Of a stretch of DNA of 32,000 nt, positions 5,211 through 26,488 are shown piece by piece (position 1 is the stretch's first letter; each line of letters starts with the position of its first letter). A model generated the notes under the pieces. The model worked only from the letters and a program-made list of their open reading frames with translations. It was not told the origin of the DNA and ran no database searches. Source of the stretch: Trichodesmium erythraeum IMS101 (GTDB taxonomy: Bacteria > Cyanobacteriota > Cyanobacteriia > Cyanobacteriales > Microcoleaceae); contig NC_008312.1 in the NCBI RefSeq assembly GCF_000014265.1, forward strand, positions 5,400,001 through 5,432,000, read 5' to 3'. The position numbers were made by a program, and so were the translations under genes.

Positions 5211-5704
5211 ATGGGTATATAAAAGCAATTACAGTGGTTTTGAGAATGCTTTGACACAAACCTTAAAGGGTTTCAGGATATGTAACTTTTGTTTTTCAAT
5301 TCAAATCTCAGTATTTTAGGTTAATGGATTAATGGAAATTGCTATACTAAAAAACAAACTACCGCAAAACATAGCCTGATCATATTAAACACATAAGTCA
5401 GTAGAAACATTTTTTATATCTAACATATAGGCAGTTTTTCAGATACTCTTCTAAATAATCTGCCGAAAAAAAATAAATAATCTGTCAAATAAATCTGAAG
5501 ATTATTCTCAAATAACTAGTATTTGGATTTGTTACGCAACTTATTTATTACGGAGGCCAAAAAAATATTATATTATTTTATTTTATGAGATTATTTCCTT
5601 TTTTTTATTTTATTTTAGCAAAATCAGCGTGATATAACTGTATGAATTATGACACAAAATCAGTATAATATTGTTTATAAAATCAATTTCTACAATTAAG
5701 GCCA

Positions 5705-6397
5705 ATGTCAGAAGAAAAATTATCCCCTAGTCAAGAGATAAAATATGCAGTTGACTTAGTAATATGTATTGATGCTACAGGTTCAATGACCCCTGTTATT
5801 GATTTAGTAAAATCAAGTGCTCTTAGCTTTTACAAAGATATAGAATCTAGGATGAAGGAGAGGCAAAAAAATGTAGATCAACTTAGGGCAAAAGTAATTG
5901 TTTTTCGAGATTATTGGGCAGATAAACCTGAGGAGGTAATGGTCAATTCTGAATTTTTTGATTTGAAGCAAAAATCTTCTGAATATGCTAGATTTGTATC
6001 TTCAATTTATGCGAAAGGTGGAGGTGATGAGCCAGAAAATGGTCTAGAAGCTTTGGCAATAGCTTTAAAGTCAGAATGGGAAAATGGGCCTAACTTTGCT
6101 AAACAGCGTCATCTTATAGTTTTTTATACTGATGCTAGTGCTCACTCTTTAGAGAAAGAACCAAAACCTAGTTATTATCCTAATGATATTCCTAAAAATT
6201 TTGATGAATTAACAGATTTATGGGGAGAAATGTCAGATTCAGCAAAAAGATTACTCTTATTTGCGCCAGATGCTACACCTTGGACAATGATTTCTAGCTC
6301 TTGGGAACAAACTATCCATTATCCCTCTAAAGCTGGAGAAGGTCTGAAAGAATTTGAAAATGAAGAAATTATAGCAGCAATTATTAATAGTATCTAA
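5705..6397 (+). CDS. small cytoplasmic von Willebrand factor A (vWA) domain protein, TerY-like position in a vWA/PP2C/kinase triad
   Basis: 230 aa. It has a MIDAS-like first motif, DLVICIDATGSM (D-x-T-G-S), a later GGGDEPENGLEAL, and hydrophobic-strand + Asp (LIVFYTDAS), giving vWA Rossmann-like strand/helix periodicity. There is no signal peptide or TM segment. AAGG lies 5 nt upstream of the ATG. Confidence 0.75.
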   Translation: MSEEKLSPSQEIKYAVDLVICIDATGSMTPVIDLVKSSALSFYKDIESRMKERQKNVDQLRAKVIVFRDYWADKPEEVMVNSEFFDLKQKSSEYARFVSSIYAKGGGDEPENGLEALAIALKSEWENGPNFAKQRHLIVFYTDASAHSLEKEPKPSYYPNDIPKNFDELTDLWGEMSDSAKRLLLFAPDATPWTMISSSWEQTIHYPSKAGEGLKEFENEEIIAAIINSI

Positions 6398-6522
6398 AAA
6401 GTTTCTGTTGATTAAAGCAAGAGTTATGATGGTAGTAACTTAGTATTACTACCAAGTTATTCTCCAATTTATAAGTATCTAATAACAACGTAAAAATATA
6501 TATAGTTTCGTGCATAAAAATA

Positions 6523-8379
6523 ATGAATAAAGAACAAGTTTTAGTTATCAGCTTAGAGAATAAATTAGGTCAAGGTGAAGATTTTCAGATTGCAGAAGAC
6601 TATGAACAAGCAATTGTCATAGGAGTTTTTGATGGTTTAGGGGGAAGAATTTTAGGTACTGCGAAAGAAACAGGAGGAAGAATTGCTTCTAGAAAAGTTG
6701 CTGAAATTACTAAGGATATTTTAGCAGAATCACAAGGTAATTTAGATCAAGACCGAGCTTCAGAAATTAAAGGCAAGAGTTGTCAAATACTTAAAGAGTT
6801 TGCTGACAAAAATCTTCCTACTTCCAGAATTAGAGGGAAATTAGCTTCTAAAAGATTATGTTCTACTATAGGGGTTGCGAGTCTTTTTAAGAGATTAACT
6901 GACGAGCAAAAATATTTGGTTCAAATAGCTTGGATGGGGGATTCTCGTATTTATTATTTGCACCCTCATCAAGGGTTACAGCAGTTAACTAAAGATGACT
7001 TCAAGGAAAATAAGAATGCTCTAGAAGTTATTTATCAAGATCTACCTATGTCTAAGTTTTTAACAGCAGATCCAGACGCTGATTGGGAAATTAATTACAA
7101 AGAATTTGAGTTTTCAGAAGAAGGGTTTATTTTTGCTTGTACTGATGGATGTTTTCAGTATTTACCTGCTCCGTGGGAGTTTGAAAAACTTTTACTAAAA
7201 ACTTTAATAGAATCTAATTCTATGGAAGAATGGCAAAATTTACTAACTAATTTTTATAAATATAATAAGTATGATGATGTTACTCTTTTGCTTTATCCAT
7301 TAGGAAAGAATGAGCTAAATTTTCAAGATTTTCATAGTGCTTACCAATCACGTTTAGAGCATCTAAATAAAAATTATAATATTCACAGTAAAAGTAATCC
7401 TGATGAGTTAAAAAAAATGTGGGAGCAATATCAAAATGATTATGAAAATAGGTTAGAAAAAGTAAAGGTTAAAGACTCTTTAGATGCTGAAAAGGTAAAA
7501 ACTAATGATTTATATTTATCTAATCTAGATAAAGAAACTGAGGCTGATGAAACTACGGAGGAAATATCTGCTGGTGCTTTAACAGAGGAAAAAACTGAGG
7601 CTGATGAAACTACGGAGGAAATATCTGCTGGTGCTTTAACAGAGGAAAAAACTGAGGCTGATGAAACTACGGAGGAAATATCTGCTGGTGCTTTAACAGA
7701 GGAAAACACTGAGGCTGATGAAACTACGGAGGAAATATCTGCTGGTGCTTTAACAGAGGAAAACACTGAGGCTGATGAAACTACGGAGGAAATATCTGCT
7801 GGTGCTTTAACAGAGGAAAACACTGAGGCTGATGAAACTACGGAGGAAATATCTGCCGGTGCTTTAACAGAGGAAAACACTGAGGCTGATGAAACTACGG
7901 AGGAAATATCTGCCGGTGCTTTAACAGAGGAAAAAACTGAGGCTGATGAAACTACGGAGGAAATATCTGCCGGTGCTTTAACAGAGGAAAAAACTGAGGC
8001 TGATGAAACTACGGAGGAAATATCTGCCGGTGCTTTAACAGAGGAAAAAACTGAGGCTGATGAAACTACGGAGGAAATATCTGCCGGTGCTTTAACAGAG
8101 GAAAAAACTGAGGCTGATGAAACTACGGAGGAAATATCTGCCGGTGCTTTAACAGAGGAAAAAACTGAGGCTGATGAAACTACGGAGGAAATATCTGCCG
8201 GTGCTTTAACAGAGGAAAAAACTGAGGCTGATGAAACTACGGAGGAAATATCTGCCGGTGCTTTAACAGAGGAAAAAACTGAGGCTGATGAAACTACGGA
8301 GGAAATATCTGCCGGTGCTTTAACAGAGGAAAAAACTGAGGCTGATGAAACTACGGAGGAAATATCTGCTGTTTTTTGA
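6523..8379 (+). CDS. PP2C-family Ser/Thr phosphatase with a C-terminal acidic 19-aa tandem-repeat tail
   Basis: The N-terminal approx. 260 aa carry the bacterial PP2C motif series: GVFDGLGG (DGxGG), AWMGDSRIYYL (GDSR), ACTDGCF (xDG) and YDDVTLLL (DDxT). Residues from about 339 onward are 14.6 copies of TEADETTEEISAGALTEE(K/N). Confidence 0.8.
   Translation: MNKEQVLVISLENKLGQGEDFQIAEDYEQAIVIGVFDGLGGRILGTAKETGGRIASRKVAEITKDILAESQGNLDQDRASEIKGKSCQILKEFADKNLPTSRIRGKLASKRLCSTIGVASLFKRLTDEQKYLVQIAWMGDSRIYYLHPHQGLQQLTKDDFKENKNALEVIYQDLPMSKFLTADPDADWEINYKEFEFSEEGFIFACTDGCFQYLPAPWEFEKLLLKTLIESNSMEEWQNLLTNFYKYNKYDDVTLLLYPLGKNELNFQDFHSAYQSRLEHLNKNYNIHSKSNPDELKKMWEQYQNDYENRLEKVKVKDSLDAEKVKTNDLYLSNLDKETEADETTEEISAGALTEEKTEADETTEEISAGALTEEKTEADETTEEISAGALTEENTEADETTEEISAGALTEENTEADETTEEISAGALTEENTEADETTEEISAGALTEENTEADETTEEISAGALTEEKTEADETTEEISAGALTEEKTEADETTEEISAGALTEEKTEADETTEEISAGALTEEKTEADETTEEISAGALTEEKTEADETTEEISAGALTEEKTEADETTEEISAGALTEEKTEADETTEEISAGALTEEKTEADETTEEISAVF
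7537..8370 (+). repeat. 57-bp coding tandem repeat, 14 full units plus a 36-bp partial unit
   Basis: The unit is actgaggctgatgaaactacggaggaaatatctgc(t/c)ggtgctttaacagaggaaaa(a/c). Only two positions vary across about 800 bp. Unit pattern: (gct,K) x2, (gct,N) x3, (gcc,N) x1, (gcc,K) x8. Confidence 0.98.
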
Positions 8380-8696
8380 ACAGATGAAGACAATAAACAT
8401 GAGCAAATTTTTCAGTAAGTATCTAGTAGTTTGGAATAAAAAATACTTTCAAACAACAGAAGGTTGGAAATAAATTTTTAGTCAAAATGAAATCAAAAAA
8501 TATGATATTCAATTAGGTTTATTAGAGTATATTTTTGTCGAGATGAGGAGATGAGATATAGGGAAGATTGAGAAAGGCTTAAACTCAGATCAGCAATAGG
8601 TTTAATCTGACTAGTTTTAATTGTGGGAAAAATGCATACAATTCACTTATCAGAATCCAATAATAGTTAAAAAAATTCATTACTAGGGGGCAAAAA

Positions 8697-9788
8697 ATGG
8701 CTTATAAGAAAGGTGAAAAAATTGGTAAATATATTATTACTCGTGATTTTGATAGCACTAATGGTGGTCAAGGTCAATGGGGTTTTGCTGAATACAATGG
8801 AGAAGAATATTTTATCAAAAAATTTCTCAATCCTGTATATCCCGAAGTAAAAGCACCAGGAAGTGAGAAAGGAAAACAAAAGAAGAAAGACAGATGTAAA
8901 GAATTTGAAAGAAAACATTTAGGGATGATGAAAGCCCTAAATTCTTGTGGTGATGGTGGTTTAGTTGTAAAAACTACGGATTTTTTTAAGCATGGTAATG
9001 AATTTGGCAGTCATTATTTTAAGGTATCCCAAAAAGTTGATACTAGCAATTTGTCTAATGAAGTTTATAATCTTGATTGGAAAAATAGATTATTTATAAT
9101 GCTAACCTCAGCTGGTGCCTTAAAAATGTTACATAGAAATGGCATTATTCATTTAGATTTAAAACCGGATAATATTTTAATTCAAGAGTGGCAAGGAAAA
9201 TTAATTGCCAAGATAATTGACTTCGATAGTAGTCTTATTGAAGGTGATGTAACACCTTCTGAAGAATTAGTAGGAGATCCACTTTATTTATCTCCAGAGT
9301 TTGCGAAACATATTGGCACATATGGTGAAGAATTACCACCTACTAATCAATCTGATGTGTTTTCTTTAGGATTAGTATTTTGTCATTATTGTACGGGAAA
9401 ATTACCTACTTTTTCTCGTAAGTACAATTATCCCTATGAGGCCTTAATTAATGAGGGAAAACTGGAACTACCAATCAGTTCTTTGATGAAAACAAAAGAG
9501 GAAAAACTAGTAGGAAAGGCTGTTTTTGAGTTAATAAAAAAAATGCTAATTCTAGATCAAAATAAGCGAATATCAATAGATGAAGTTCATGAGGCTTTAA
9601 AAGCTATTTGTAAAGAAAAATTACCTAAAAATTCTCCAAGAACTTCTCCATTAGAAAAGAAAAAAAAATTATCTGAAGGTAGTGGAATCAAAATAGGTTC
9701 AGATACAACAAACTCAAAAAAATCAAAAGAAAAAGAAGATTACCCAAAATCTGGTAGGATTAAATTTAATTTTCCCAAAAAGAGTTAA
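8697..9788 (+). CDS. Hanks-type Ser/Thr protein kinase (non-RD, DFD variant) with a Lys/Ser-rich basic C-terminal tail
   Basis: It has a Gly loop GQGQWG, the lysine in EEYFIKKF, the catalytic loop HLDLKPDNILI, IIDFDSS in place of DFG, and LYLSPEF in place of APE. The C-terminal approx. 60 aa are KKKKLSEGSGIKIGSDTTNSKKSKEKEDYPKSGRIKFNFPKKS-like. A strong Shine-Dalgarno sequence (AGGGGG) lies 7 nt upstream. Confidence 0.85.
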   Translation: MAYKKGEKIGKYIITRDFDSTNGGQGQWGFAEYNGEEYFIKKFLNPVYPEVKAPGSEKGKQKKKDRCKEFERKHLGMMKALNSCGDGGLVVKTTDFFKHGNEFGSHYFKVSQKVDTSNLSNEVYNLDWKNRLFIMLTSAGALKMLHRNGIIHLDLKPDNILIQEWQGKLIAKIIDFDSSLIEGDVTPSEELVGDPLYLSPEFAKHIGTYGEELPPTNQSDVFSLGLVFCHYCTGKLPTFSRKYNYPYEALINEGKLELPISSLMKTKEEKLVGKAVFELIKKMLILDQNKRISIDEVHEALKAICKEKLPKNSPRTSPLEKKKKLSEGSGIKIGSDTTNSKKSKEKEDYPKSGRIKFNFPKKS

Positions 9789-9860
9789 GGATGTGTAATT
9801 AAATCTAGTTACTTAATAGAAATACCTAATATAAAATTCAAGCTAGTCATATTGTACTAA

Positions 9861-10586
9861 ATGCCTATTTACAAGTGTAACGAATGTAGTCACGAATACA
9901 GTCAATTATCAAAACCTAGTGATTGCGAGGTTTGTGGTGCAAATAATTTTAAAATTGTAGAAGAAAAGAAGGACTTAGAATCTGAAAAAGTTAAAATATT
10001 AATTCCTTCCTTTATTGAGAAAACTATACTTAATGAAAATATAGTTAAGCAATCAGTATATTGGTCTCCAATTAGTAGATTTGCCAGGTTTAAAGATGGC
10101 TGTTTATTTCAGGAGGTTTCAAAACCTAACTGGGGTGAATGGAGTGTTTTGAATGCCAATTATTTACCTGATAATATTCAAAAAACTGATTACTCTATAG
10201 ATGTAAAAAAGGTAGATGGCCCTAAGGATTGTCTTTACGGAATACTTACTACAATTAAAGAAAGTAAATTCTATTATTTATTGATTACAAGTAATGGCTA
10301 TTTTTCTATGGGAAAACACTCAAAATCAAAGTGGAATCATTACATAGACAGAGAGAAGCATAGTTCTATCAATCAAGGTAATAGTATTAATAAATTAAGG
10401 GTAGTTACTGAAGGAAATTTAATTACAGGATTTATTAATGGTAAGAAGGTGGAGAGTTTTAGAGATGATTTATCACCCTACAAATCTACCAATATAGGGG
10501 TATACTCAGCAAGCAGTATACAAGGAAATGGAGTGGCTGTGTACTTTAATAAAGTTAAAGTTACAACTACTGTTTTGAAATACTAA
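9861..10586 (+). CDS. hypothetical protein: N-terminal CxxC-x12-CxxC zinc ribbon plus a C-terminal beta-rich (LamG/DUF1080-like jelly-roll?) domain
   Basis: 241 aa. The N-terminus is MPIYKCNECSHEYSQLSKPSDCEVCG. The C-terminal approx. 170 aa show alternating beta-strand patterning (DYSIDVKK, YGILTTI, YYLLITSNGYFSMGK, LRVVTEGNLITGFINGKKV, IGVYSAS, VAVYFNKVKV) that resembles concanavalin-like modules. The domain assignment is inferred by eye only. Confidence 0.6.
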   Translation: MPIYKCNECSHEYSQLSKPSDCEVCGANNFKIVEEKKDLESEKVKILIPSFIEKTILNENIVKQSVYWSPISRFARFKDGCLFQEVSKPNWGEWSVLNANYLPDNIQKTDYSIDVKKVDGPKDCLYGILTTIKESKFYYLLITSNGYFSMGKHSKSKWNHYIDREKHSSINQGNSINKLRVVTEGNLITGFINGKKVESFRDDLSPYKSTNIGVYSASSIQGNGVAVYFNKVKVTTTVLKY

Positions 10587-10637
10587 AAACAGTTCTGATA
10601 AAACAGAAAATATATATTAGAATTTACCATTAACTTA

Positions 10638-10874
10638 GTAACAATTCTAGGATTACTAGCAGCCACTCTCATAACTATTTCATTTTTACCTGAAGTTATT
10701 AATACTTCGTATACTTAGTTCTATAAAAGATATCTCCTTATAAACTTTTGGTCTTTTTTACTCAAGTTTATTGCTTTGGATAATTTACCCTATCCTTATT
10801 CAATATTTACCAGTAATGTTTTGATTTTGATTTCATTCTTACTAATTTGGTTGTTTAAGTTTAAGTGCAAATAG
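10638..10874 (+). pseudogene. decayed SemiSWEET / PQ-loop family transporter gene
   Basis: Three frame-shifted segments are visible: VTILGLLAATLITISFLPEVINTSYT*, then KDISL*TFGLFYSSLLLWIIYPILIQYLPVMF*, then SNVLILISFLLIWLFKFKCK*. Together they follow the SemiSWEET pattern (G-x-x-A-x-x-L-T-x-x-S-F-x-P-Q ... S-L ... L-W-x-x-Y ... N). The conserved PQ is PE here, there is no start codon, and there are at least 2 stops and 2 frameshifts. Confidence 0.6.
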
Positions 10875-11284
10875 CTAATATTGTTAACTAATGAACTAGA
10901 AAAAAATTAATCATTAAAATATAGTTTTGTTCCTTCAGAAATAGGTTAAAAAGAAGCTAAAGGAATGATGATATACGCTGATCTATTCTTAGCAATATCA
11001 ACTGCTCACTGCCGTTATTGAGATTATTTTACTACACTCCCTTGTAGCGAAAAAATGAACTGGAATGTAATGTTTTATCCAACTTAAGTTTCAGAATAAC
11101 AAGTAAACTAATTTATGGAAATTTATCAATTTAATGCCCGTTCAGTACAACTAATTAATAATAAGAAGATTGAAGTTCATTAATAGGTATTTCGGGGTTC
11201 TCAAAAAATTGGGTTTAAAGCCTTGAGTACCGATATTGTGACTTATTTTATTGATTAATATATAACTGGGTAGTTTCAGACAGA

Positions 11285-11840
11285 AACAAGGGCGCACTAG
11301 GCAAGCTTAACTTACTCTTCTTGCTCCTTTTCCGGGAGGGAATGGGTCACTATGTCAAAAAATTTAGATTATCTGGAGGGAAATTATCCTGTTCTTGGCC
11401 CAATACTTATACTGGGCTTGCATGGAGATACAGGTACTTTGGTGAGTTTGGCTTCTCAAAAAAACAAATTATTAACAATGGCCATGTGAAAAATCTCAAA
11501 ACCTCACAGGTTAGTAGAGGACATCATTAGTAAAAACTAAACCCATCATGAGGAGAGAACTAACGGAGTTTTTAGGCAGCTTCTAGGTAGGTGGCATTGC
11601 TGACATGGGAAAAGTTGGTAAGGCCTGGCCACGGAGATAGATAAAGGTGAGGTTGGCTCACCCTTGCTTAAGTTGAATTTTGATTCATACTCGTAAAGAT
11701 AATACAGGAGCAGGAGCACAAAGGGTAGAATAAGCGATCGCACCCTGGAGTTCGAAGGACTTACTAACTCATCCCAAACTTTGCCCTCTGCATTAAACAT
11801 AAATATATAAGTTCTCTCTTTGGCGCAGAGTGTTTTCATT
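11285..11840. other. G+C-rich island without a credible ORF (candidate structured RNA or relic of a mobile/foreign element)
   Basis: Individual 60-nt lines reach about 50% G+C (e.g. 11581-11640), against under 20% in the flanking desert (e.g. 12001-12060). Local hairpins include GGTGAG-gttgg-CTCACC (about 11647-11663) and GCCCA-N10-TGGGC (about 11397-11416). The two track ORFs (11321..11530 +, 11546..11839 -) resemble no family I recognise. Confidence 0.3.
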
Positions 11841-13206
11841 ATTCACAATTAAAAAAAATCAAAAAAAATAAAAGTGCTCTTTTTATTGGTTCAGATCAAA
11901 AAGAAAACTTGATTTTTATTATAAAGGTATTATAATTAATAGTTTTATTCATAACCTGAAAATAATCAAAGATTTTAGCAAAAATAGGAGTAAAAAAAAT
12001 TAAATTTGGGTAGTATTAAGTATAATATTATTAAGTGTTTTAAGATAAAATAGTAGTTATTAATCAATCATTTATTTAGTTAAATTAATTAACTATAAAC
12101 TGATAAATATGTTAAATATACTCTTAAAAAAGTTGCCTTGATACAGCAAAATTAGGAGAGTAATAATAATACTATAATAGCAATATATACAATTAATTTA
12201 TTTCAAGAACTAGATTGGCACTTACTCCTAATACTATCTTTTTAGGAGGGGATAGAGGTAAGTTGAAGATGGGATAGGAATTAATGGTAAAAGTTTCAAA
12301 ACACTTGAAAAAATTTATGAATAAAATAGACAAAATATATTAATAAATAGTGTGCGGGTTGAGTCAGCAAAAAAAGCTAATTATTAAATCGAAAGTATCT
12401 AAGAATAAAAAAAATCAGAAATAAAGCAAGTGCAAGAGCTGATAAGAGATTGGGTTTAACAGATAAATGCACTGTATGGTAGTAAAAGCCAATCGAAATA
12501 TATATACCTTTAAATACTTAGCATTAGCAAAAGTACAAAAACTAATTAACAGATATAAGGAAATAGATTAAAGTTATAGATGCCAAATTAGGAGAATAAT
12601 TACTGTTCTGTATGAGATAAGTAATGTCACTTAAGTTGATGAAATTGGTATACTGATCATATCAGTGATTAATAAAGAGTAGAAGCAAAAATAGATAGTG
12701 AGTTAAGAAAAATAAATTTAATTTTTACTTTGATAAAATTTATATTATTATTGAAAGTAATTTTTTAGAAATAGTCAGGTAAGCATTCAGCATTCAGCTA
12801 GACTCTTAGAAAGAAACTGCGTTTTAAATTATCAGCTATTACTTTTAGTTTAGATAAAAAATAAAAGCTGTATTAATTGAGCCATAACTAAATATTATTC
12901 AACGGCATTATATCTCTAGCTAATTGAGAAAATTGGTATTACTATAAAACCAGAGTCTTATTGATGAGAGATGAATGCTTACACAGCCATAATTAATTAG
13001 TTAAGGTTTTAAATACCCTAACTATACCTCTGATAAATTATACCAAAGTTGAAAATATTTTATATTACAGGGTAGGTTATAGGGAATATTCCAGCTCTTT
13101 ATTTGATTTTTATGCCTGGCAAAATTTAGGTATGATATAACTATAAAAAAGGTTGGTTTAGTATGTTTTAAATTTGTATAAACTCATAAATAATAACTAT
13201 TTAAAT

Positions 13207-17020: not shown

Positions 17021-17306
17021 AATGTTAACTTAAATTTTTCCATAATTAAACCATTTATATACTGTCATCATTACCTTAAAAAACTATTTTAGGAGTTGTT
17101 ATTTAGATTTTTTTCTGTACATATAGTTCTAAAAACTCCCACACTTCTTGCCTCAAACCAATAAATGTTAATTTTAATTTTTCCATAATTAAATCATTTA
17201 GATACTGTCATCATTACCTTAAAAAACTATTTTAGGAGTTGTTATTTAGATTTTTTTCTGTACATATAGTTCTAAAAACTCCCACACTTCTTGCCTCAAA
17301 CCAATA
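17021..17306. repeat. tandem duplication, 2 x 143 bp
   Basis: Copy 1 is 17021-17163 and copy 2 is 17164-17306. There are 4 mismatches, all within the first approx. 40 nt; the last approx. 100 nt are identical. It lies inside an ORF-free AT-rich tract. Confidence 0.95.
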
Positions 17307-19130: not shown

Positions 19131-19319
19131 TAAAATAGTTAGAAATAATAAGCACAACATACAAAAATCTAAACTCATTACATGAATAAATCTACTACTT
19201 TGCCACTGTCGAATAAAATCTGCTCATAAAATAGTTAGAAATAATAAGCACAACATACAAAAATCTAAACTCATTACATGAATAAATCTACTACTTTGCC
19301 ACTGTCGAATAAAATCTGC
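19131..19319. repeat. tandem duplication, 2 x 93 bp separated by 3 bp
   Basis: 19131-19223 and 19227-19319 are identical by eye. The spacer tca (19224-19226) is the reverse-strand TGA stop of the membrane-protein ORF. Copy 2 encodes that ORF's last 31 codons. Confidence 0.95.
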
Positions 19320-19640
19320 CCATTCACCACTTTTAAAACTGTATATTAGTAAAAAAATCGTACCTAACCCTAAAGCAATTCCTAAAATTAGAGAGTCTAA
19401 GATATTCAAAAATAAATTCTTTTTACCAGAAAAAATTGAATTAGGTTGACGCAATCCTAAATAGGGTAAAATAGCAAATTCTCCGACTCCAAATGATAAT
19501 GTAGAAAATAACCATGCTGGTACTTTTTGTCCTCTACCATCAGATAATAACAAACAACTATAAATTAGAGACCATATTCCTATAATATTGAATAGAGATA
19601 CAATCAAAGGATTAATATTTTCCCATTCACCTGTTGCCAA
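19224..19640 (-). CDS. small multi-pass membrane protein, possibly 5'-decayed (see findings)
   Basis: 138 aa with about 4 hydrophobic helices. The track start is a TTG. An in-frame TAA (19646-19644) separates it from a further upstream helix-coding stretch that lacks any start codon. Confidence 0.5.
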   Translation of the reverse strand: MATGEWENINPLIVSLFNIIGIWSLIYSCLLLSDGRGQKVPAWLFSTLSFGVGEFAILPYLGLRQPNSIFSGKKNLFLNILDSLILGIALGLGTIFLLIYSFKSGEWADFIRQWQSSRFIHVMSLDFCMLCLLFLTIL

Positions 19641-23267: not shown

Positions 23268-23298
23268 GTTTTAGGTTTTAGGTTTTAGGTTTTAGGTT
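23268..23298. repeat. heptanucleotide tandem repeat (GTTTTAG) x 4.4
   Basis: gttttag occurs at 23268, 23275, 23282 and 23289, plus a partial unit. This is the STRR-like short tandem repeat class common in filamentous cyanobacteria. Confidence 0.9.
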
Positions 23299-24525: not shown

Positions 24526-24876
24526 CTAAACAGATACATAGGTTTTCTCAAATTTCGGAACAACTTCAGGAACAGACAAGTTACTTATACAGTGATTTAT
24601 TGTGCAGCAATTCCAGAAAGCTTGCGCCACTTCTAAGTATTCTCTTAAAACCTTAGAAACACTTATAACTGTGTTGATAACTGTTGGTAAACAAGGACTA
24701 GGTATAGATGTTGTGAAAAAGGTATTAACGATAGACCACAATATGATTGTCCAAAGAAATCCTAATACCGACAATAAAATTAAGTCCAGCGCAGCAAAGC
24801 AACATACAACTTCTTTAGGTATTGAAATAACTATAGCAAGCCTTGCAAAAAGGGAATTATTCAGTTTTTCTGCCAT
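24526..24876 (-). CDS. hypothetical small Cys-rich membrane protein (uncertain)
   Basis: 116 aa with two hydrophobic helices. A 119-aa ORF on the + strand (24602..24961) overlaps it over most of its length, so at most one is real. The minus-strand ORF looks more protein-like. Confidence 0.3.
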   Translation of the reverse strand: MAEKLNNSLFARLAIVISIPKEVVCCFAALDLILLSVLGFLWTIILWSIVNTFFTTSIPSPCLPTVINTVISVSKVLREYLEVAQAFWNCCTINHCISNLSVPEVVPKFEKTYVSV

Positions 24877-26488
24877 TTTTCTATATCGTCAGAGTCAATT
24901 TATTAAACGCAACCAATCAGACCTATACAAACTAAGGATTTTGAATCGACAATCTGTCTAATTGTTATAGAAAGTTGACTCTTCATTCTCCTCTCAATGC
25001 CTACGAAGTTAGCTGACGGGCTAGGGCTGAGAGATGCCCTTCTCTACATCTTTAAATTTATTAATCTTAGATAAAGACTTTTATTCAGAGATAAGCCCCT
25101 AATTTTTGGTTCCTCCGCTCTAGCAGCACCTTTGCTGTGCTTTTATGGCCAGATTAGGCTGACTGTTTTTATCTTAATATTATTTTAACTTCTTGAGCAC
25201 AACTTTGTCAACTTTTAACTTCCGAGAAAGGGTATAATAGATATTTTAAGTTGACTTCCATTACTAATTAAATTAGAATTATATACTAAGTCAAAAGTTA
25301 AATTATTGTCCTGACTAAGGAATAAGAATTTCAGAATCTCCTGAGAATTATGTATACTAGTAGTAGGACACAGCTTAATTTTGAGGGTTAGATTTTAGGG
25401 CTGGTTTATTTCCAGTAAGTAGACTTCTCCAAAAATGCAGATTTGGAGACGGCGAGGTAAGGGCTTAAAAACCTTTCGGAGGAGATATCTAATAGAGTCA
25501 TTGAGTGTGGGAAATTTTCAAATCCTCAAAAGCTTACTATATAAGAATTTCAGGATTTTATGATTTTAAATGTCGGTAAATCTTAATTGATAAGGTTTTT
25601 AGTCATTTTCTTCCTTAATTCCCAACAACAATTTAAACTAGAATTTGCTTCTGGTAAAAATGGTAAAACCTTGACATAAGTAATAATTATAGATATAAAA
25701 GAATTGCTCTGCATAGTTTGAGCTTTGTTAGTCAACTACTAAACCTGACAACCCTAAAAATGTAGGCTTTTATAGAAGGAAGTGAAGCCTAACACACCTC
25801 TCCCCCTAACTTGATTGTGCTGGGGTTACTCTAAGGGTATTTTGCTACATTTTAAGGCATATTATATATTAATCACACAATCTTATATGTTTCAGTCTAC
25901 TACTATACTATTTCCAAATAATATGCCACATCTATTTATGTAATATTTAGTCTATTAATTTATCTATTAATTTTAAGTTACAAGTTTGGGCGACCTGGTT
26001 ATTTTATGCTTTTGAGTGTAAATTGAGGTAATGCCGTAACCGATGAATTTTCTATAGCCTTGGATAAAATCTCATGATTATATGATTTATCGTGGTCTTT
26101 ATTTTTTGACTAGGGCTTACCAAAAAAGCAAGACCAAAGACCTTATTAAATATTTTGCTGACCCTCAAAATCAATAGTTAGGAATTATTAAATAGCAGAG
26201 CAGCGAAAACAAAATGTTAAATTAATTAACGCACCTTTTCTTGAGCTTCAACTAGGAGCTGACCAATTTTTTTTCAAGAATGTTCTCCAGCCCTATTTAC
26301 AAAAGACTTACAAGCTTAACTTGTCACTAATACTATCTAAGTCACTCTTTCTATTTAAAATCAAACAGTCATTGTGATTATGATCATTAAATATTGTAAT
26401 TATGATCCCTTATTGTTTTAAGTTTATATCACCATGTAATAATAAATTATCAATGATAATATAAATGTAGAATATAAAGATAATTGTT

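Follow-up and report, generated by a model that had tools for sequence, protein, structure and literature searches.

Why should a cytoplasmic signalling phosphatase end in a long run of near-identical 19-residue repeats? The question is raised by Tery_3509, a PP2C-family gene of the cyanobacterium Trichodesmium erythraeum IMS101, which lies in a 32,000-nucleotide (nt) stretch of its chromosome (NC_008312.1, positions 5,400,001 to 5,432,000; hereafter the window, to which all coordinates refer unless a contig is named). A reading made from the letters of the window alone (the sequence-only reading) had attributed the repeats to very recent expansion and unequal recombination, and expected them to behave as a contingency locus. 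Here we describe the array, the protein that carries it and the genes around it, in comparison with related genomes. The array appears to be as old as the genus Trichodesmium and to be under concerted evolution, and it is probably an in-frame coding minisatellite (a variable number tandem repeat, VNTR), turned over by slippage or unequal recombination within a disordered, compositionally constrained and otherwise tolerant tail.

The array and the protein that carries it

The open reading frame (ORF) at 6523–8379 encodes a product identical to ABG52599.1 / WP_011612941.1 on the 7.75-Mb chromosome of T. erythraeum IMS101. The gene and its parts are as follows.

6523–8379, plus strand: PP2C-family phosphatase gene Tery_3509, 618 amino acids (aa) (ORF list; exact sequence look-up)
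6523–7452, plus strand: PP2C/PPM catalytic domain with two C-terminal helices, aa 1–310 (pLDDT scores, from the predicted local distance difference test; Foldseek, Pfam PP2C_2, invariant residues)
7453–7536, plus strand: low-confidence linker, aa 311–338 (pLDDT below 50 from residue 315)
7537–8334, plus strand: repeat array, 14 full units of 57 base pairs (bp) in frame 0 of the ORF, encoding TEADETTEEISAGALTEE(K/N) (Tandem Repeats Finder (TRF) and direct unit listing)
8335–8379, plus strand: terminal 15th unit, truncated and non-homogenised (unit listing; DNA alignment across clades)
8380–8525, plus strand: decayed remnant of the ancestral C-terminal coding sequence, untranslated (DNA alignment; tblastn of ortholog tails, E = 7e-6 and 3e-4 in a small search space)

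TRF detected a repeat of period 57 bp at 7535–8369, with 14.6 copies, 99% matches, no indels and a score of 1607. Together with the unit listing, this confirmed the array that the sequence-only reading had placed at 7537–8370, with its two variable sites and its haplotype blocks of 2, 3, 1 and 8 units. The 14 full units differ only at unit base 36 (7572+57n; GCT or GCC, synonymous for alanine) and unit base 57 (7593+57n; AAA or AAC, lysine or asparagine), and the haplotypes succeed one another along the array in the order (T,A)×2, (T,C)×3, (C,C)×1 and (C,A)×8. A run of six adenines (A6) is present at every K-type unit junction (n = 10 in IMS101). The 15th unit follows the consensus for 38 bases and then diverges; the TGA stop at 8377–8379 occupies the position of TTA (leucine) in the other units, and its position makes the unit an ortholog of the final unit in other clades (..RED E / ..TDED). 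At the other edge, the last linker codons (GATAAAGAA) resemble the end of a repeat unit.

The repeat tail accounts for 280 of the 618 residues (45%). It contains 88 Glu, 15 Asp, 10 Lys, 59 Thr and 15 Ser, with a net charge of −93, and many of its 74 serine and threonine residues stand in acidic contexts (T-x-x-D/E). In an AlphaFold2 model built on a 58-sequence alignment, residues 315–618 have a pLDDT of about 40 and no secondary structure. The tail is thus predicted to be disordered, as the description of it as acidic and probably disordered had anticipated.

By contrast with the tail, most 10-residue blocks of aa 1–310 have a mean pLDDT above 90 in the same model. A Foldseek search against the PDB returned only PPM phosphatases among the top 50 matches, the best being the cyanobacterial tPphA (2j86; E = 2.4e-13, template-modelling score normalised to the target 0.74), and model and fold comparison both place residues 1–310 in the PPM fold, a central beta-sandwich with flanking helices. 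A PDB sequence search with the N-terminal domain returned nothing meaningful, and only the fold comparison was informative at this level. A Pfam search with the whole 618-aa protein gave no match; searched alone, the N-terminal 338 aa matched PF13672 (PP2C_2) above the gathering score (E = 2.2e-6, 27.8 bits versus a cutoff of 24). A low-score NCBIfam match of the whole protein to AIDA-I was rejected as spurious and caused by the repeats. Residues E19 and D20, D37 and G38, G139 to R142 (the GDSR motif), D208 and G209, and D251 and D252 are invariant in the 58-sequence alignment, and the metal-binding acidic residues of PPM motifs 1, 2, 8 and 11 are all conserved in Tery_3509. From the alignment and the model, we can confidently assign the N-terminal 310 residues to the PP2C/PPM phosphatase fold, which bears out the PP2C label given earlier on the domain.

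Tery_3509 is not mentioned in the searchable literature, and the supplements of the iron-transcriptome paper hold no entry for these genes. The protein is nevertheless present in IMS101 proteomes, with 37–57 spectral counts per sample (PMC6411698 supplement), a count that ten identical tryptic peptides from the array may inflate; because the protein is detected, the gene is not a pseudogene. The +1 (sense) frame is the only one that stays open in every homologous array of the five genomes compared. An antisense ORF of 317 aa (7440–8393, minus strand) was rejected as a gene and regarded as a by-product of the repeat, because its −2 frame is open in IMS101 but contains three stops in the clade 3 contig L001 and six in MAG_R03 (L008; MAG, metagenome-assembled genome). 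Three units folded as single-stranded DNA were no more stable than shuffled sequences (z = 0.0), which gives no hairpin-type explanation for instability, and a promoter and terminator scan of 5300–10900 found nothing above shuffle expectation.

Origin of the array and its concerted evolution

We surveyed 101 cluster representatives of the homologues, and a tandem array is found only in Trichodesmium proteins. In the Okeania orthologs, whose domains are 76–82% identical, this position holds one 19-residue segment, with a tail of about 35 residues behind it. TPR repeats follow the catalytic domain in more distant homologues and were lost in Okeania and Trichodesmium. Tandem 57-bp units are found in all Trichodesmium clades examined, at least two in each clade, and start at the same codon after residue 338. 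The common array start ACTGA[AG] and the 57-bp period occur in IMS101, in the erythraeum MAGs L003 and L004, in L043 (R01-type), L001 (clade 3), L002 and L007 (thiebautii-type) and L008 (R03). The unit itself differs between clades: IMS101 and its close relatives have TEADETTEEISAGALTEEK, the R01-type lineage (98% identity in the domain) has ..ISAAALTEEK, the third clade TEPIENFEEESSSYLREEK, MAG_R03 IEPRETFEQESSSYSREEE and thiebautii-type genomes TEVMASFEEESIGDSSESE. A GGT to GCT change (AGAL to AAAL) is a fixed difference between IMS101 and the R01-type lineage in every unit seen. The two sites that vary within IMS101 also segregate, in other orders, in other erythraeum-clade assemblies and are therefore shared polymorphisms older than IMS101. 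On the sequences compared, the array locus is genus-specific and dates to the base of the genus.

Within an array, mean pairwise nucleotide identity of the units is 0.92–0.98 versus 0.55–0.68 between clades; the catalytic domains of those genome pairs are 0.88–0.90 identical. The IMS101 array is the longest and most homogeneous among those seen, and the 12 units of the thiebautii-type array form a mosaic, its variants being 86–98% identical. Units are alike within genomes and diverged between clades; the locus is old and its homogeneity continually renewed. Homogenisation does not reach the last unit, which can be aligned by position from clade to clade; this fits unequal exchange as the driver. 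Judged by these alignments, the array is under concerted evolution and is not purely a recent expansion.

These comparisons divide the claims made from the sequence of the window. The ortholog comparison proposed there as a check returned tandem units in all Trichodesmium clades, a single unit in Okeania and divergence between clades, and the recent homogenisation by unequal recombination or slippage that had been read from the near-identity of the units is supported. The statement that this is not an ancient repeat is unsupported or overstated, with same-register units of clade-specific sequence in all Trichodesmium clades and thiebautii-type arrays diverged to the extent given above; nor is very recent expansion the whole story, as the two variant sites predate IMS101 and are shared with erythraeum-clade assemblies.

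The unit changes faster than the domain next to it. The proportion of non-synonymous differences (pN) between unit consensus sequences is 0.31–0.42 in five of six clade pairs (0.14 for L001 versus L008), three to six times the catalytic-domain pN of 0.05–0.10, and the ratio of non-synonymous to synonymous substitution rates (dN/dS) of the unit consensus is about 1.

The sequence downstream of the array has decayed. A tail after the repeats (..NQENLAEKGLFNKKGGEEIFRQNEIKEDDTKPSL) is kept in one clade (L001, clade 3) and in Okeania. In IMS101 its remnant lies behind the TGA and is interrupted by further stops and a frameshift, in thiebautii-type genomes the tail is lost by a 4-nt insertion, and in MAG_R03 by a TAA codon. 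The independence of these three truncations (TGA, 4-nt insertion and TAA) argues for weak constraint on this end of the protein; functional constraint on the repeat tail would also be weak. Within the remnant, the stretch TTTTTAGTCAAAATGAAATCAAAAAATATGATATTCAA (8478–8512) is highly conserved across four Trichodesmium lineages and untranslated in three of the four, having been cut off there by independent stop or frameshift mutations. This points either to recent truncations or to a second role of the stretch, perhaps in the 5′ region of the downstream kinase gene.

Unit number and turnover of the array

All assemblies compared, except IMS101, are short-read and prone to collapse at such repeats. 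In the three Trichodesmium protein clusters, most MAG versions are marked ‘partial’ and break off within the array, and MAG_R03 has a 100-N scaffold gap there. A Logan contig (L005) encodes vWA, PP2C N-terminal and kinase proteins that are 100% identical to those of IMS101, yet holds 0.6 units, and MEGAHIT-style contigs (k119 and k141) hold 1.6–2.6. The short-read collapse that the sequence-only reading had warned of is therefore apparent in the partial MAG copies, the R03 gap and the Logan contig. In assemblies that reach the stop codon, the unit numbers are 0.6, 1.6, 2.6 and 14.6 for erythraeum (all but IMS101 from short reads), 2, 4, 5, 6 and 12 for thiebautii-type genomes, with differing orders of unit variants, and 1 and 3 for clade 3. 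The low erythraeum-clade counts (0.6–2.6) are not reliable evidence of polymorphism, because assemblers with k from 31 to 141 would yield them. Thiebautii-type units differ enough for assembly, and the differences in their number suggest real length polymorphism. Of the expected copy-number variation, the difference between assemblies thus stands, whereas polymorphism is only suggested in view of the collapse; we infer that true copy-number polymorphism exists in nature.

Could the array, or its size, be an assembly artefact of the IMS101 reference? The 0.6 units of L005 between identical flanking proteins, the lack of any independent long-read Trichodesmium assembly in a genome contig scan, which did not retrieve IMS101 itself either, and scans of metagenome contigs with erythraeum-type and thiebautii-type unit patterns, which gave 0 matches, would speak for this. 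Against it, similar tandem units occur in more than 25 independent assemblies, whose contigs typically end inside the array, and a 12-unit array was assembled in a thiebautii-type MAG; ordered blocks of four haplotypes are not expected from a collapsed or inflated assembly, and collapse lowers counts and never raises them. An artefact is scarcely credible as an explanation overall: it is unlikely for the existence of the array, and the exact unit count rests on one reference.

In the draft of T. erythraeum 21-75 (LADK02000224.1; L044, positions 2515–2745), an extra base where unit 1 meets unit 2 (GAAAAC-A-ACTGAGG) shifts the frame, so that the protein would stop after a single unit (358 aa); three more units follow out of frame. 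The insertion may be a genuine truncation allele or an error of sequencing or assembly.

Contingency loci, such as the phase-variable genes of Haemophilus, Neisseria and Campylobacter, have units of 1–7 nt whose gain or loss shifts the reading frame or promoter spacing. Like them, the array in Tery_3509 is a run of repeats within coding sequence for which hypermutable length is expected; it differs in its 57-nt unit, which always preserves the frame. A true contingency locus, with high-frequency length change within cultures giving heritable, reversible variants under selection, could draw on near-perfect 57-bp repeats as good substrates for slippage and recombination, on unit counts that differ among assemblies, and on the A6 runs at the ten K-type junctions, which could yield frameshift truncations of the kind that the +1 insertion in 21-75 exemplifies. 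However, the unit is 3 × 19 nt, so that gain or loss never shifts the frame and the behaviour ascribed to the array by the sequence-only reading would involve no on/off switching; a strict contingency locus is not supported because unit changes are unable to turn the gene off. Truncation could come about only by a frameshift at the A6 runs, which are short for high-rate slippage. Moreover, the protein belongs to the cytoplasmic signalling machinery and is not a surface or restriction determinant, and the small erythraeum-clade counts are explained by assembly collapse. We therefore regard a contingency locus as very improbable.

Coding repeats of the VNTR kind are familiar from the streptococcal alpha C/Rib proteins, the SD repeats of staphylococcal Clf proteins and the 33-residue repeats of cyanobacterial GvpC. 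Strain-variable intragenic tandem repeats have also been surveyed in Legionella pneumophila (PMC2639597). The Tery_3509 array shares with bacterial intragenic VNTRs a long unit that is a multiple of three, arranged head to tail in frame with a real gene; near-identity of the units, which are more alike within than between genomes; an unstructured, spacer-like product; edge units that escape homogenisation; and, as far as can be judged from these patterns, generation by slippage or unequal recombination. The strain-variable unit number of such VNTRs is suggested here by the differences between assemblies. It differs in that the host is a cytoplasmic PP2C signalling phosphatase and not a surface, adhesin or structural protein, that unit number has no linked phenotype here, and that the array sits where relatives carry a TPR domain. 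It is an ordinary coding minisatellite of known kind, in a probably poorly constrained tail of an unusual host protein.

We infer a history in which one 19-codon segment after the PP2C domain was tandemly duplicated in the Trichodesmium lineage, Okeania keeping the single copy. Slipped-strand mispairing, unequal RecA-type recombination between units, or both, would then have turned the array over, keeping units alike within a genome while letting clades diverge fast. Unit number would change in 57-bp steps with the reading frame kept, and IMS101 would be a recently homogenised and expanded version with about 14.6 units. The product would be an intrinsically disordered tail, translated, polyanionic and rich in Ser/Thr, in which at most the composition is constrained and not the sequence or length, so that changes in the array would alter the length of the tail and not the on/off state of the gene. 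Recombination or slippage is the presumed mechanism throughout.

Several points weigh against this explanation. Every Trichodesmium clade has at least two units and has kept the acidic, Ser/Thr-rich composition, with 5–6 serine or threonine residues and a net charge of −5 to −7 per unit in all clades, so that the tail could be selected and not merely tolerated. In the comparisons with IMS101, the units differ in total by more than the domain does at synonymous sites (proportion of synonymous differences, pS, about 0.2; uncorrected p = 0.002–0.02), which goes beyond what simple relaxed constraint predicts; this fast divergence may reflect faster mutation and fixation within the array, sorting of ancestral units or positive selection, which are inseparable with 19 codons. 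In addition, the IMS101 count of 14.6 rests on one finished genome, and differences in unit number are confounded by k-mer collapse, above all for the near-identical erythraeum-type units.

Other tandem duplications suggest that such events are common in the IMS101 genome. ORF-poor DNA of the window contains two copies of a 143-bp sequence at 17021–17306 (97%), two copies of a 96-bp sequence at 19131–19323 (98%), which overlap a 138-aa minus-strand ORF without a Pfam match, and 4.4 copies of GTTTTAG at 23268–23298. The T. erythraeum IMS101 genome is reported to be about 40% non-coding (PMC4143802).

The tail within a TerY-P-like cassette

The genes that accompany Tery_3509 in a co-oriented cassette are as follows.

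5705–6397, plus strand: vWA-domain protein Tery_3508, first cassette gene (Pfam VWA_4, E = 1e-9; MIDAS-like DATGS motif)
8697–9788, plus strand: Ser/Thr protein kinase Tery_3510 with a basic C-terminal tail, net +11 (Pfam Pkinase, E = 1.7e-26)
9861–10586, plus strand: fourth cassette gene Tery_3511, an N-terminal CxxC..CxxC zinc ribbon and a 200-aa domain of unknown family (weak Zn_ribbon_8 and RCKP rubredoxin-like matches)

In 35 loci from species-representative genomes, the vWA gene adjoins the PP2C homologue in 31 and the kinase gene likewise in 31; besides cyanobacteria, these loci include Bacteroidota, Actinobacteria and Clostridia. As outlined in two summaries (PMC11090510 and PMC7699616, after Anantharaman et al. 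2012 and Gao et al. 2020), the TerY-P triad consists of a TerY-like vWA protein, a PP2C phosphatase and a Ser/Thr kinase fused to a zinc ribbon or an OB fold, the defence version having the OB fold. The yegL-yegK(pphC)-yegI operon of E. coli has three components as in the TerY-P triad, and the phosphatase of this analogous triad dephosphorylates its cognate kinase (10.1101/303594). The Trichodesmium cassette is similar in that all three domains are encoded in one co-oriented cassette, with the vWA gene next to the phosphatase and a zinc ribbon directly after the kinase. It differs in that the zinc ribbon is the N terminus of a separate fourth gene and not fused to the kinase, which ends in a basic, low-complexity tail; in that the locus lies between psbEFLJ and a radical-SAM gene and not in a defence island; and in that the repeat tail is not a family feature. 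Neither NCBIfam nor PADLOC matched the vWA protein as TerY-like. The PADLOC defence models gave no match for the vWA and PP2C proteins, and only generic kinase models (mad6 and PD-T4-6) matched; PADLOC thus lends no sequence-level support to membership in the TerY-P defence family. From its domain content, the cassette can be called TerY-P-like, and it is not an established member.

A zinc-ribbon ORF homologous to Tery_3511 follows the kinase in L018, L026 and all Trichodesmium and Okeania loci. This fourth gene (9861–10586; L018 3498–4088; L026 7813–8742) always opens with the zinc ribbon M..YKC..CSHEF..CE.CG directly after the kinase stop, and its C-terminal domains differ wholly among cyanobacteria, being a 200-aa unknown domain in IMS101 and a coiled coil with a beta domain in Iningainema. 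The gene resembles part of a TerY-P kinase–zinc-ribbon fusion in split form, with a variable output or sensor module. In the clade 3 contig (L001 9607–10188), a 193-aa MICAH-domain gene (PF27546) lies between the zinc-ribbon and radical-SAM genes; the matching ~2.5 kb in IMS101 (10600–13170) is almost without ORFs of at least 80 aa, which suggests gene loss or decay.

The kinase C terminus (9590–9788) is a 60–65-residue basic tail that ends in a conserved R[IV][KR]FNF. Its net charge is +10 to +14 in L001, L002, L008 and L009, and such tails occur in both Trichodesmium and Okeania; the charge is opposite to that of the phosphatase tail. Protein stoichiometry within the cassette is strongly skewed in the IMS101 proteome, the vWA (49–66 spectral counts) and PP2C (37–57) proteins being far above the kinase (0–2) and the zinc-ribbon protein (0–8; PMC6411698 supplementary file 2).

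Against this background, the tail might be a selected, length-tunable module: a multi-site phospho-acceptor or pseudosubstrate for the adjacent kinase and the PP2C itself, or a polyanionic partner of the kinase tail or of metal ions, unit number setting the threshold or timing of the vWA–PP2C–kinase switch. The 74 serine and threonine residues of the tail, many in acidic contexts, and its net charge of −93 would suit such a role, as would a composition that is kept in all clades despite 35–45% nucleotide divergence, the retention of at least two units in every Trichodesmium clade, the +10 to +14 tail of the neighbouring kinase, a moderately abundant phosphatase beside a barely detected kinase, and the action of the E. 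coli phosphatase on its cognate kinase (10.1101/303594). Yet the basic kinase tail is equally present in Okeania, where there is one acidic unit and hence no co-variation, the unit consensus has a dN/dS of about 1, the downstream tail was lost three times, and strain 21-75 may truncate the tail after one unit. Selection for such a module is, on balance, rather unlikely. The more specific proposal is distinctly doubtful: that the acidic, Ser/Thr-rich tail is a selected tuning knob, a putative phospho-acceptor or decoy that possibly pairs with the +11 kinase tail, and that unit number, varying between Trichodesmium populations, sets the sensitivity of the TerY-P-like switch. Charge pairing of the two tails in particular does not co-vary with the presence of the array, and is no more than speculation.

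Upstream of the cassette come the minus-strand genes ndhJ/K/C and then rubredoxin, ycf48 and psbE; downstream lie a radical-SAM gene, an HtrA-type protease and seryl-tRNA synthetase. These gene surroundings fit a cyanobacterium, and the G+C content is 32.6%. Farther away, a cyclic di-AMP riboswitch (24983–25170, minus strand; Rfam RF00379, 77 bits versus a gathering score of 38, E = 1.9e-16) lies upstream of a minus-strand ORF at 24526–24876 (116 aa).

In almost every Trichodesmium MAG the Tery_3509 ortholog is mis-assembled, truncated or labelled ‘partial’, and length differences in databases call for long reads before they are given a biological meaning. Read as a 57-bp ladder, the locus could be used as a strain marker of PCR size for Trichodesmium populations. 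It is a clean bacterial case of concerted evolution in a cytoplasmic signalling protein, in which one 19-codon segment would have become an array that was re-homogenised separately in each clade while the downstream sequence decayed in three independent ways. If the tail did prove to be a phospho-acceptor or decoy, it would offer a handle on the regulation of TerY-P-like triads.

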